Shown one piece after another: positions 1 to 4,516 of a DNA stretch of 4,516 nt. The stretch lies in the IMG/VR virus record IMGVR_UViG_2713896791_000013, one strand, 5' to 3'. A model generated the notes under the pieces. It saw only the letters and a program-made list of their open reading frames with translations, searched no databases and was not told where the DNA came from. Position numbers and translations under genes: made by a program. Each line of letters begins with the position of its first letter. The first letter of the stretch is position 1. The DNA is from a virus (taxonomy: Duplodnaviria; Heunggongvirae; Uroviricota; Caudoviricetes).

Positions 1-17
1 ACCTTGGTTTAAGAGAA
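1..17. promoter_or_regulatory. Partial crossover site for a serine invertase (left, cix/gix/hix-like); outer half lies beyond the window
   Basis: Bottom strand reads TTCTCTTAAACC-AA-GGT. This fits the recalled hixL (TTCTTGAAAACC AA GGT...) and gixL (TTCCTGTAAACC GA GGT...) pattern of TTC....AAACC, a 2-bp core, then GGT. The site sits at the outer boundary of the repeat, as in P1. Confidence 0.6.
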
Positions 18-681
18 CTCGGTACCAGCGGTGAAAAGATCCCCCTGTTGAGCACGGCTAACACATGGAGTGCGCGCCAGACTTTCAACGGCGGGATCAC
101 CGGGGCGCTGACAGGGAACGCCGACACCGCGACGAAATTGAAAACAGCCATAAACATTAATGGCGTCAGGTTCGATGGTTCTGGTGACATTAATATCAAT
201 ACTCTGGTATCGCGCGGTCGCGTAACGGCCTTGGAGGCGAATGCACAGGGAACATCCGGGATTCAGCTGTATGAGGCATACAACAATGGCTACCCTTCCC
301 CCTATGGCAATGTGCTTCACCTTAAAGGTGCCACCGCTGCTGGCGAAGGTGAGTTATTCATTGGCTGGAGTGGCACGAGCGGTGCCCATGCGCCCGTACA
401 TATCCGTTCGCGGCGGGATACTGATTCTGCCAACTGGTCTGAATGGGCGCAGGTCTATACGTCAAAAGATTCAATTCCCGGCGTCAATGCCAAAGGGGAT
501 CAGGATACTTCCGGCAATGCTGCTACGGCGACCAGATTGCAGACGGCGCGCACTATTAACGGTGTTTCGTTTGATGGTTCTAAAAACATTGAGCTAACGG
601 CTGAAAATTTAAATCTTGAGCAAACCGTAGAACTAGCCGCTGGATCATTGCAGAAAAACCAGAACGGCGCGGATATTCCTG
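1..681. repeat. Left inverted repeat (IR-L), 681 bp, coding for the shared part of the tail fibre
   Basis: Reverse complement of 3836..4516, checked directly at both ends. Three overlapping frames give identical mirrored ORF translations (9..320 with 4197..4508, 241..597 with 3920..4276, and the main fibre frame), which implies nucleotide identity throughout. First mismatch is at 682 (g) versus the complement of 3835 (a). Confidence 0.9.
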
Positions 682-1562
682 GAAAAGATACCTTCACTAA
701 AAATATTGGTGCATGTCGCGCTTTTCACAGTTCTATTAGTACAGGTGCAGGGAACTGGACAACGGCACAATTGATTGAATGGCTGGATTCTCAAGGGGCA
801 TTCAATCACCCATACTGGATGTGCAAATGTTCATGGTCATACGGCAATAATAAAATTATAACCGATACTGGCTGTGGAACTATTCATCTTGCAGGTTGCG
901 TTGTTGAGGTTATGGGTAATAAAGGTGCCATGACCATCCGTGTAACAACGCCAAGCACTTCCACCGGTGGCGGAACCACTAATGCGCAATTTACGTATAT
1001 AAACCACGGTGGAGATTACGCACCAGGCTGGCGGCGTGACTACAGTACCAAAAATCAGCAGCCTGCATTTGCTTTAGGGCAGACAGGAAGCACTGTTGGA
1101 AATGACAAAGCTGTTGGATGGAACTCAATTAGTGGCGTTTATAATGCGACTATTGGTGGAGCATCAACATTGATTCTTCACTTTAATATGAATGCGGGGA
1201 GTTGCCCTGCTGTTCAGTTCCGTGTGAATTATAAAAATGGCGGTATTTTTTATCGTTCAGCGCGAGATGGTTACGGATTCGAAGCTGACTGGTCAGAATT
1301 CTACACCACAACACGTAAGCCATCAGCGGGAGATGTTGGTGCATATACCAAAGCAGAATGTAATTCACGATTTATTACAGGTATTCGATTAGGTACAAAA
1401 TCGTCAGTGCAAACATGGAATGGTCCTGGTTGGAACGATAAATCTGGTTATGTTGTTACTGCCTCAATCAACTCAAATAAGGACGAACTTATTGATACAA
1501 CTCAGGCAAGACCTGTGCAGTATTGTATCAATGGCACTTGGTATAACGCGGGAAGTATTTAA
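3..1562 (+). CDS. Tail fibre protein, C-terminal portion, variant A (5'-partial). Shared region is encoded in IR-L; variant-specific receptor-binding domain from 682.
   Basis: Long ORF ending at TAA 1560..1562. The track's 'M' at 48 is a TTG codon, and the frame has no stop back to nt 3, so the gene starts upstream of the window. Contains the fibre-like repeat motif GNA.TAT.L.TA..INGV.FDGS twice. Followed 2 nt later by a chaperone gene. Confidence 0.85.
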
Positions 1563-1564
1563 TT

Positions 1565-2098
1565 ATGCAGCATTTGAAAAACATCAGATCCGGAAATCCA
1601 AAAACTGTTGAACAATATGAATTGACGCGACAATTCGGTGTTGTCTGGTTGTATTCTGAGGACGATAAAAACTGGTATGAGGAACAAAAGAACTTTCAGG
1701 ATGACACTATAAAAATTGCTTACACATCAGATGGAATTATTGTGGCTATAGATAAAGACGTATCTACAATAAATCCAGAAGGTTTAAGCGTTGTTGAGGT
1801 TGCTGACATTACTGCAAATCGCCGTGCTGACATTTCGGGTAAATGGATGTTCAAAGATGGCGTAGTGATAAAGCGAACTTATACCGAGGAGGAACAGAGG
1901 CAGCAGGCAGAGAATGAAAAACAAAGCCTGTTGCAACTTGTCAGGGATAAAACCCAGCTATGGGACTCACAGCTACGGCTGGGTATCATTTCAGACGAGA
2001 ATAAACAAAAATTAATCGAGTGGATGCTCTATGCGCAGAAAGTCGAATCTACAGACACCTCCAGCCTGCCAGTAACGTTTCCCGAACAACCAGAATGA
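1565..2098 (+). CDS. Tail fibre assembly chaperone (Mu U / P1 U / Tfa family), cognate to variant A
   Basis: 177-aa ORF with ATG at 1565, 2 nt after the fibre stop, and a GGGAAG Shine-Dalgarno-like sequence at 1550..1555. N-terminus MQHLKNI..GN.KT.EQYELT...W.YSED.KNWYEE is recognised from memory as typical of enterobacterial phage tail-fibre assembly proteins. Paralogous to the 2126..2653 ORF. Confidence 0.85.
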
Positions 2099-2101
2099 GA
2101 G

Positions 2102-2121
2102 AAGGCCCGCTATCGGGCCTT
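2102..2121. terminator. Candidate bidirectional terminator hairpin between the convergent chaperone genes
   Basis: Perfect 8-bp GC-rich stem AAGGCCCG / CGGGCCTT with 4-nt loop CTAT, in the 27-bp gap between stop codons at 2096..2098 (+) and 2126..2128 (-). Followed by AATTTT on the + strand; the U-tract is weak in both directions. Confidence 0.5.
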
Positions 2122-2125
2122 AATT

Positions 2126-2653
2126 TTACTCTGGTTTTTGTGGCCATTCTGGCTTTGCCGTATCCACGCGGCTGACCAGAACGCTGTAGCGTTCCCAGGC
2201 TTCCAGTCGTGTACGTTCCTCATCTGTTGCCATATTCAGCCTGACAGCGCGCTCCAGTGGCTGAATAACGCTTTCCGCATCGGAAAGTAACGCGGCCTTT
2301 TGTGATTCGGCCTGTTGTTGCTGTTCTTCTGCCGTATAAATCCGTTTAACCACAGCTCCGTCCTTAAACATCCACTTACCGGAATCATCGGCCCGACGAT
2401 TGGCTGTTATATCGGGGACTTCAACAACGCTAAAGCCTTCAGGATTAAGTGTGGAGGCATCTTTAGTGATGGCTACAATAATATTATTTTCATCGTAAAC
2501 AATCTTTATTGTGTCTGGCTGAAAATTCTTTACCTCTTCATACCAGTTCTTCCCGTCTTCAGAGTAAAGCCAGATAACTCCGTGCTTCTTTGTTAACTCA
2601 TACTGCTCCGGTGTTTTAGCATTACCAATTTTTATGTTCTTTAAGTGGATCAT
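2126..2653 (-). CDS. Tail fibre assembly chaperone (Mu U' / P1 U' / Tfa family), cognate to variant B
   Basis: 175-aa ORF on the minus strand, with its ATG (2651..2653) 1 nt after the variant B fibre stop (2655..2657). About 74% identical to the 1565..2098 product over the first ~123 residues (counted by hand); the last ~55 residues are divergent. Confidence 0.85.
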
Positions 2654-2654
2654 A

Positions 2655-4514
2655 TTAAACGCTCGCTACATTATACCAGGTGCCATTTATATATTTTTGA
2701 ACGGGTCTGTAATAAACGCCAGCTATATTATCGGCAGAATTGGACCCTGTATCCTGAACATTTATACCAGACAATACATGACCTGAAGGGCACTGGAAGT
2801 TCCATGTTTGCCAGTTGTTCACACCATAATATTGCTGTGAGCCAAGCCGAACATCTTTCACATATCGGGAATCAATGTTACCCCAGTTGCTTGGTTGTAT
2901 CTGACCGTTTACAGCAAATATCACCGAGTTATCTGTATTTCGCTGACTATAGAAATGCCAGCCTGAATCATCACCAAGCTCTGCAACAGTTGGTCTTGAC
3001 GAATTTCCCCACAAGTTAAATGATGCATTACGGGCAGCGGTATTTGCACTTGAAAGTGTGAAGAACTTACTTTCCCCAGCCTGAATACCCTTTAATGATC
3101 TTGCTGAACCATTTATAAAGCGGAATACATGCACACCATTAGCATAAGCATCCAGCACCCCATCACCATTTTGTTTAAACCCGGTATCGTTATCTCCTAA
3201 AACTATTGAATTTCCACCCAGGGCATTAGCCGTTCCAATCCCCAGATTTCCGCTAAAAATGGCATTAATACCGAATATTGAGTGAGAACAATAAAACCCT
3301 CGCCCATTGTTAAAATCCAGAATGGCTTGTGCGTTCGTGCTTTCTGTCGCGGGATTAGTTGCTCCCCACTTATATGTTGTTTGACCGACGGTATAATCCT
3401 GAGTTGGAACAATAACCGTTAGCCCTTCTTCAGCAGAAACCCGCACAGGAAAAGCCCTGCCTTCAACGTAAAAAACGCTGCATACATCATCTTCTTTAAG
3501 GCTTGTTACAATGGAATGGATTGCGCGCTCATTAGTCTGATACGTCGAAAAATAACCTGCCGCATATGAACCACGATCAGTCCAGCCACCAGGCATTACC
3601 ATTCCATTGAATTCGCAGTTATTCATTTCGTAATTACCACCGGCAGATGTGGTCGTTATAATCACTCTGGAAGCCAGCTCGCCAGTGCTGCCTGTGGAAC
3701 GCTGGAAAATAACTGGATACCACTTTCCACCAACAGCATTAGACGGCGCGTTAAATACGTACTGCCGCATTCCTTTTTTCTTATCCACCTCGCCTTTGCT
3801 GTAAACATTAATGTTACTCAGGAAGCGATCTTTATCAGGAATATCCGCGCCGTTCTGGTTTTTCTGCAATGATCCAGCGGCTAGTTCTACGGTTTGCTCA
3901 AGATTTAAATTTTCAGCCGTTAGCTCAATGTTTTTAGAACCATCAAACGAAACACCGTTAATAGTGCGCGCCGTCTGCAATCTGGTCGCCGTAGCAGCAT
4001 TGCCGGAAGTATCCTGATCCCCTTTGGCATTGACGCCGGGAATTGAATCTTTTGACGTATAGACCTGCGCCCATTCAGACCAGTTGGCAGAATCAGTATC
4101 CCGCCGCGAACGGATATGTACGGGCGCATGGGCACCGCTCGTGCCACTCCAGCCAATGAATAACTCACCTTCGCCAGCAGCGGTGGCACCTTTAAGGTGA
4201 AGCACATTGCCATAGGGGGAAGGGTAGCCATTGTTGTATGCCTCATACAGCTGAATCCCGGATGTTCCCTGTGCATTCGCCTCCAAGGCCGTTACGCGAC
4301 CGCGCGATACCAGAGTATTGATATTAATGTCACCAGAACCATCGAACCTGACGCCATTAATGTTTATGGCTGTTTTCAATTTCGTCGCGGTGTCGGCGTT
4401 CCCTGTCAGCGCCCCGGTGATCCCGCCGTTGAAAGTCTGGCGCGCACTCCATGTGTTAGCCGTGCTCAACAGGGGGATCTTTTCACCGCTGGTACCGAGT
4501 TCTCTTAAACCAAG
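2655..4514 (-). CDS. Tail fibre protein, C-terminal portion, variant B (5'-partial). Shared region is encoded in IR-R; variant-specific domain 2658..3835.
   Basis: Long minus-strand ORF ending at TAA (complement of 2655..2657). Identical to variant A through residue P211 of the track translation, then unrelated. Frame is open to the window edge; the track start at 4469 is TTG. Variable domain is about 100 aa longer than A. Confidence 0.85.
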
Positions 4515-4516
4515 GT
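3836..4516. repeat. Right inverted repeat (IR-R), 681 bp, mirror of IR-L
   Basis: Same evidence as IR-L; position p on the left corresponds to 4517-p on the right. Confidence 0.9.
4500..4516. promoter_or_regulatory. Partial crossover site for a serine invertase (right), inverted relative to the left site
   Basis: Top strand reads TTCTCTTAAACC-AA-GGT at 4500..4516. The core dinucleotide is AA here and TT at the left end, the inverted orientation needed for inversion rather than deletion. Confidence 0.6.

Follow-up and report, generated by a model that had tools for sequence, protein, structure and literature searches.

Tail fibre chaperones U' and U of a P1-like invertible C-segment: a step in identity that probably marks a junction of domain lineages

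The two tail fibre chaperones encoded in the DNA analyzed here (4516 nt; hereafter, the window) are very likely the U' and U proteins of a Cin-invertible C-segment, in which the N-terminal domain docks on the fibre and the abrupt loss of identity at the C-terminal domain is a junction between domain lineages, not a determinant of specificity. An initial annotation of this DNA had assigned cognate-fibre specificity to the divergent C-terminal part of each chaperone; this assignment is contradicted by both the solved Mu complex and the domain combinations that occur naturally. As corrected here, fibre matching would reside in the N-terminal 35-70 residues, and the divergent C-terminal module appears to be interchangeable across fibre types in nature. 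The identity of the genes, the limits of their domains, the two states of inversion, and the independence of C-domain type from fibre tip were each observed and are described below.

The invertible segment and its genes

The window is a complete C-segment of a P1-like E. coli phage-plasmid and constitutes what is evidently an active Cin-type host-range switch. All 4516 nt are matched at 100% identity by the E. coli plasmid pUTAK-19-1, and the P1 C-segment is colinear with the window (89% DNA identity over 71-74% of its length). The window contains exactly one such segment, cut 4 nt outside each crossover, and is bounded by inverted repeats of 695 nt (left arm, 1..695; right arm, 3822..4516) that are 99% complementary and encode the proximal part common to both variable fibre ends. 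At the edges lie two 26-bp sites, CAATCCTAAACC-TT-GGTTTAAGAGAA and TTCTCTTAAACC-AA-GGTATTGGATAA, colinear with the annotated cixL and cixR of P1. The window itself holds the inner half of each cix-like site: on the left, the core TT (4-5) and the half-site GGTTTAAGAGAA (6-17), which continues into the pUTAK-19-1 flank and has P1 cixL at the equivalent position; on the right, the half-site TTCTCTTAAACC (4500-4511) and the core AA (4512-4513).

The surroundings of the segment in pUTAK-19-1 also follow those of P1. A 561-nt CDS annotated as 'recombinase family protein' adjoins its left end, with the position and length of P1 cin, and to its right lie the constant fibre part, an R-like gene, and baseplate genes, as in P1. 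The S CDS extends from the segment into this flank, the constant 5' part lying outside the segment. Both fibre frames are open through the edges of the window, and two alternative 3' ends lie inside it, each with its own chaperone. In the pUTAK-19-1 orientation, the constant part Sc is fused to Sv, while in the sister plasmid pUTAK-25-1 a 100%-identical segment is flipped and Sc is fused to Sv' as a 997-aa CDS. Because the same segment occurs in both orientations in these sister plasmids, we consider the switch to be active. All of the Cin/Gin-type features for which the window was tested were found, i.e., inverted crossover sites, an adjacent invertase gene, constant and alternative parts, and both orientations. 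Both the switch and its genes belong to the textbook biology of P1 and Mu, and this sequence had already been deposited and annotated. Alternative frames are also open in the two arms, as identical pairs encoding 103 aa (9-320, minus strand, and 4197-4508, plus strand) and 118 aa (241-597, plus strand, and 3920-4276, minus strand); they appear on both strands because they lie inside the 695-nt inverted repeats, and carry no evidence of being genes.

The Sv'-type variable fibre end (3..1562, plus strand) continues in an open frame through the left edge and, in the orientation of pUTAK-19-1, is silent. This end shares 94% identity with P1 Sv', and over its distal 288 aa it matches the solved structure of the Mu S' fibre (8JU3). 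The GenBank record of pUTAK-19-1 has a free-standing 'tail fiber protein' (4096-5562 there, equivalent to window 96-1562) that begins at an internal codon; this is the silent, promoterless Sv' cassette, and its appearance as a separate gene is an artefact that arises when a single state of the inversion is annotated. The Sv-type variable fibre end (2655..4514, minus strand) is fused in this orientation to Sc, outside the window. The last 72 aa of Sv (window 2655-2870) are identical to phage P2 gpH; its body (approximately 2720-3822) had no counterpart in P1 S or Mu S, and in the PDB it matched, weakly, T4 gp34-like repeats and a 'short tail fiber' chain (9CUY). Sv' and Sv are homologous over their last 77 aa (38% identity, E 7e-8), while the fibre bodies are unrelated. 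Both tips end in the motif RP(V/I)QxxINGxWYN, and the terminal motif [RA]P[IVL]Q[KY]xI[NG]GxWYN stands at the end of all seven classes of tip defined below. The two Mu fibre structures differ in composition: 8JU3, of S', is a single chain with no U' chain, and 5YVQ, of S, includes U. The absence of U' from 8JU3 may indicate that this chaperone does not remain attached to its fibre; our literature search on 8JU3 yielded a figure legend and no paper describing the structure.

Each fibre end is followed by a chaperone gene. The U'-type tail fibre assembly protein (177 aa; 1565..2098, plus strand) consists of an N-domain (aa 1-107; 1565-1885) and a C-terminal helical domain (aa 108-177; 1886-2095), and the U-type protein (175 aa; 2126..2653, minus strand) is likewise divided into an N-domain (aa 1-107; 2653-2333) and a C-terminal helical domain (aa 108-175; 2332-2129). 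No strand had previously been given for the second of these ORFs; its position on the minus strand means that the two genes converge, their 3' ends facing each other across 27 nt. Homology searches bore out the proposed membership of both proteins in the tail-fibre-assembly family. Both matched Pfam PF02413 (Caudo_TAP; cut-off 22.1), U' with an E value of 1.6e-35 (122.6 bits) and U with one of 2.3e-37 (128.5 bits), and both aligned over their full length with Mu gpU (5YVQ_B; E 2e-101 for U and 9e-62 for U'). U is approximately 90% identical to the Mu gpU of PDB entry 5YVQ. By these matches, both ORFs encode tail-fibre-assembly (Tfa) proteins, orthologues of the U' (plus strand) and U (minus strand) proteins of P1 and Mu.

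The gene arrangement proposed in the initial annotation also holds. There is one chaperone for each fibre variant, located directly downstream of its own fibre on the same strand, and its start codon follows the fibre stop codon by 2 nt on the plus strand (TAA 1560-1562, ATG 1565) and by 1 nt on the minus strand (stop 2655-2657, ATG 2653). Across 277 related fibre/chaperone pairs, this gap is always 1-4 nt, and such tight spacing makes coupled expression of fibre and chaperone plausible. The 88-93% identity to the Mu U protein of the solved complex, together with literature summaries, suggests that the chaperones act in the folding or trimerization of their cognate fibres and bind the distal tip.

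A terminator scan identified a G+C-rich hairpin, AAGGCCCG-CTAT-CGGGCCTT (2102..2121), in the 27-nt spacer (2099-2125) between the chaperone genes. The predicted fold of 2085-2140 has a dG of -26.4 kcal/mol (z -6.8), none of 200 shuffled sequences being as stable, and the hairpin is probably a bidirectional intrinsic terminator. The spacer measures 27-28 nt in all 70 related segments. In the E. coli K-12 e14 type, the 3' ends of the convergent tfaP and tfaE genes overlap by 29 nt (4518-4546 in the e14 locus), as is conserved in 59 unique pairs.

Around the hairpin, a sliding-window comparison delimited a conserved central core (1780..2500) made up of U' aa 72-177, the terminator, and U aa ~50-175. 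The core is 87-94% identical in DNA sequence to P1 and Mu, whereas its flanks, which hold the fibre tip and the opening 50-70 codons of the chaperone gene, are 65-75% identical; the exchanged unit is therefore the fibre tip together with the 5' end of the chaperone gene. Judged by the same comparison, both C-domains form part of the switch's fixed scaffold. On the U' side, window 1350-1780 (the Sv' tip and the first ~70 U' codons) forms a divergent cassette with 65-75% DNA identity to P1 and Mu and saturated dS, set within sequence where the remainder of Sv' is 80-100% P1-like and the C-domain of U' 95-98% identical. The N-domain of the window's U' constitutes a third variant that lies roughly as far from the U type as from the U' type.

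Conserved and divergent parts of the chaperones

U' and U are 59% identical over their whole length (BLASTP, E 5e-66). The conserved front and divergent back reported for them initially were recovered in a global alignment, in which 91 of the first 123 residues (74.0%), and then 14 of the following 54 (26%), are identical. Evenly spread divergence, which had been named as counting against the claim, was not what the alignment showed: the maximum chi-square breakpoint falls at columns 116-123, its statistic was reached in 0 of 2000 permutations, and it is significant by Fisher's test (p 3e-9). The same step is present in the type phages, where U and U' are 71% identical in the N part and 25% in the C part in P1, and 70% and 28%, respectively, in Mu. 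Our search of the literature on the U/U' domain pattern found no statement of it.

To call the C-terminal parts largely unrelated, as had been done, is nevertheless an overstatement. Aligned directly, they match each other with an E value of 4e-6, and each matches positions 62-131 of the Pfam Caudo_TAP model. Searched alone, the C parts match this model (E 1e-21 and 1e-22; 77 and 81 bits) better than do the N parts (E 6e-9 and 7e-9). In AF2 models, the secondary structures of U' and U are superimposable, and each protein has a confident C-terminal helical hairpin at residues 108-162 (helices 108-139 and 144-162 in U', and 108-138 and 144-161 in U; pLDDT 88-97), while their N-domains were modelled with low confidence (pLDDT 27-64). 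Non-homology of the C parts was thus ruled out by their mutual alignment, the shared Caudo_TAP segment, and the common AF2 hairpin. The two-domain build of Tfa proteins, with a beta-rich, fibre-binding N-terminal domain and a helical C-terminal domain, fits both proteins, the N-domain being poorly modelled. When the U' model was searched by fold against the PDB, only 5YVQ_B was recovered, and the helical hairpin had no meaningful matches. Between the two C types, the hydrophobic core positions (L122, L123, L139, L150, W153, and V160) are invariant, and surface positions differ.

Within a type, it is the C-domain that is the more conserved part, with 93-98% identity across Mu, P1, and pUTAK-19-1, against 78%-95% for the N-domain; for U', the C part is 95-98% identical to that of P1 and Mu U', and the N part 78%. 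Codon analysis indicated that synonymous sites are saturated in both parts when U is compared with U'. For the C part, dN is approximately 1.0 between types and 0.008-0.05 within a type, at a within-type dS of 0.14-0.75, and the within-type values rule out relaxed constraint on this part. For the N part, dN is 0.18 with dS saturated, and the same codon is used at 32 conserved residues where 31.6 are expected, which indicates purifying selection on the N part and no recent gene conversion. These two measures rule out that the similarity of the N-domains stems from gene conversion of one inverted chaperone copy by the other, and no excess similarity of the U and U' N-domains was found within one segment (74% in the window, 69-75% across phages). 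Nei-Gojobori pS values of 0.85-0.97 had suggested that additional divergence of codons between the copies was selected for, but a same-codon permutation test identified these values as a counting artefact, and this possibility was also rejected.

The two C types differ in how widely they occur. The U-type C-domain represents a common lineage, found in 290 phage records and 85% identical to P2 gpG and 46% identical to lambda Tfa. The U'-type C-domain is rarer (63 records) and has distant relatives among TfaE-like proteins and in Fels-2; a homologue search returned close U'-type relatives only and no new domain combinations. On the sequence comparisons, the C-domains are two old, separately constrained lineages of one domain. 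With two constrained lineages, the step at residues ~116-123 would therefore be a domain-lineage junction within the conserved core.

Chaperone domains and the matching of fibres

In the initial annotation, the divergent C-terminal 55 residues were held to recognize the cognate fibre, U acting only with Sv and U' only with Sv'. This reading would account for the sharp localization of the divergence and for the high conservation of each C type within its type, as for a functional surface, and in the type phages the two C types do go with the fibres, U' being paired with the S'-like and U with the S-like kind. We nonetheless judge it highly improbable, beginning with the structure of the Mu S-U complex (5YVQ): 103 chaperone residues (1-103) are modelled, the N-domain is docked on the fibre, and this domain alone makes up the ordered, fibre-bound part of U. 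The C-domain, missing from the crystal model, may make transient contact with the unfolded fibre during assembly. As summarized in papers that cite it, the work of North et al. (2019) has the N-domain binding the C-terminal region or tip of the fibre, and assigns multimerization and assembly to the conserved C-domain.

Natural combinations of chaperone and fibre point in the same direction. We sampled 160 IMG/VR loci, closely related sequences that share at least 84% identity with the queries and are phylogenetically non-independent, and obtained 151 unique pairs of chaperone and fibre tip; grouped at 60% identity, the tips (last 90 aa) form seven classes. In these 151 pairs, the C-domain is strictly of two types, with ~25% identity between them, and one C type serves several classes of tip: the U type occurs with five classes and the U' type with three. 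Tip class 3, which is P1-S-like, occurs with both C types (37 and 7 unique pairs). Individual loci provide further examples. At the U' position of Yersinia phage vB_YpM_3 stands a chaperone that combines a U-like N-domain with a C-domain of the U' type, and the accompanying fibre has a window-Sv-like body and a P1-S-like tip. A second locus (L031) encodes a fibre that is S-like over ~340 aa and a chaperone with a U'-type C-domain, and a third (L014) is another natural chimera with a U'-type C-domain; the fibres at these three loci have S-like tips or are S-like throughout. Hence the class 3 tip, the entirely S-like fibre of L031, and the window-Sv-like fibre body of vB_YpM_3 are all found with the C type that exclusive pairing would deny them.

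We also compared (i) variation along the chaperone with (ii) variation in the fibre tip across the sample. Within each C type, the adjusted mutual information (AMI) of chaperone columns with tip class peaks at residues 2-31 and 41-63, where covariation (residues 1-63) is confounded by physical linkage in that these codons adjoin the fibre gene, and is ~0 from residue 121 on, a null result for the C-domain that the linkage does not affect. None of the columns in the C-domain covaries with the class of the tip. When tip identity was correlated with the identity of individual chaperone segments, Spearman's coefficient was 0.66-0.70 for residues 1-35, subject to the same linkage, and 0.01-0.21 for the C-domain. 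Finally, the U proteins of the window and of P1 are identical at 91% of positions in the N part and 96% in the C part, despite Sv tips whose last 96 aa are only 42% identical; the chaperone thus appears tolerant of variation in the tip.

The explanation that we favour instead assigns docking to the N-domain and a general function to the C-domain. Cin inversion at the cix sites fuses the constant fibre part, which lies outside the window, to either Sv or Sv', and the chaperone gene 1-2 nt downstream is then transcribed, and probably translated, with the fused fibre. The N-domain (approximately aa 1-105) would dock on the distal tip of the nascent fibre. The N-domains may have stayed 74% identical under purifying selection, despite saturated synonymous sites, because the homologous fibre tips present a common docking target. 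The C-domain (the helical hairpin at aa 108-162 and a proline-rich tail) would serve as a family-wide assembly or multimerization module, with U carrying the common, P2-gpG-type lineage and U' the rarer one, each strongly constrained within its type. Any fine matching to the fibre would sit in the first 35-70 residues of the chaperone and be exchanged together with the fibre tip. For docking and chaperone activity, this scheme draws on the Mu structure and the literature; we infer that translation is coupled and also why two C lineages exist. In practical terms, the re-targeting of P1, Mu, P2, or pyocin fibres would call for the transplantation of the fibre tip together with the chaperone N-domain, and either C lineage should do.

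Unlike C-domains in convergent pairs and comparison with known systems

The pairing of one C-domain of each lineage in a single switch extends beyond the window. All 70 unique convergent pairs of the Mu/P1 type have one U'-type and one U-type C-domain, and in 77 unique convergent pairs of the Fels-2 and e14 types the identity of the C-domains is 0.19-0.37, never higher. In all 147 unique convergent pairs of these three types, then, the two C-domains are at most 37% identical, whereas chaperones from unrelated phages reach 46-85%. C-domains of the same type were seen only in tandem orientation (L093, L100, and L169). A selected, conserved design rule acting at the level of either DNA or protein, as opposed to an accident of ancestry, is an unlikely reason for this pattern in our estimation; the pairs represent only about three independent segment lineages, and ancestry alone could have produced the unlike C-domains.

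Long palindromes are unstable and are not tolerated by E. coli. Identical coding 3' ends for the two C-domains would form a long, near-perfect palindrome, with arms of ~165 nt around the terminator, and a constraint on the DNA might then let only segments with unlike lineages persist. The uniform pairing of U' with U C-domains in the 70 Mu/P1-type pairs, the low C-domain identity in the 77 Fels-2- and e14-type pairs, and the existence of same-type C-domains in tandem all agree with such a constraint. We regard it as quite unlikely all the same, as shared ancestry in about three independent lineages gives the same counts, synonymous changes would suffice to break a palindrome, protein identity of 26% goes far beyond that need, and the N-domain repeats have no excess codon divergence. 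Selection could instead act on the proteins, if the C-domains were orthogonal multimerization modules that kept U and U' from co-assembling and so prevented mixed S/S' trimers in a cell that expressed both orientations. Such insulation fits the proposed multimerizing role of the C-domain, the invariant core and differing surface positions of the two C types, and the presence of two unlike C-domains in every convergent pair examined; moreover, S and S' have at least 220 identical residues plus Sc in common, their whole N-terminal part being shared. It presumes, however, that both orientations would be expressed together in one cell at meaningful levels, and Tfa proteins are reportedly exchanging multimers and not a fixed trimer, which also counts against insulation. 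We consider this second possibility very unlikely.

Among known systems, the P1 C-segment, with U' (gp030), U (gp031), Sv'/Sv, and Cin, has the same architecture as the window: the gene order is identical, the chaperones are 177 and 175 aa long, the inverted repeats are long and carry cix, and an invertase gene is adjacent. The P1 C-domains are 95-96% identical to those of the window, and the P1 chaperones have the same step between N and C parts (71% and 25%). The two segments differ in that the Sv body of the window (approximately 2720-3822) is unrelated to P1 S and its Sv tip is of the P2-H type, and in that the N-domains of their U' proteins are 78% identical with saturated dS, although Sv' is 94% identical. 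In the Mu G-segment, the chaperones are gp50 (U) and gp51 (U'); the former is 88% (N) and 93% (C) identical to its counterpart in the window, and the latter 78% and 98%. Mu also has convergent chaperone genes and the same terminator core; its G segment, however, has short inverted repeats and a constant part joined closer to the variable part, and the fibre bodies differ.

P2 gpG shares 91% identity with the window's U in the N part and 85% in the C part, and gpH is identical to the last 72 aa of the window's Sv, but P2 has a single fibre-chaperone pair that is not invertible. TfaE and TfaP of e14 (Pin segment) and the Fels-2 pair resemble the window in being convergent chaperones within an invertase-controlled fibre switch and in having two unlike C-domain lineages; in Fels-2, one C-domain is U-like and one U'-like, each on an unrelated N-domain. 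In e14 and Fels-2, the N-domains are mutually unrelated, the usual pattern of Tfa proteins being a variable N-domain and a conserved C-domain, whereas in the Mu/P1 type, to which the window belongs, the N-domains are the more similar part.
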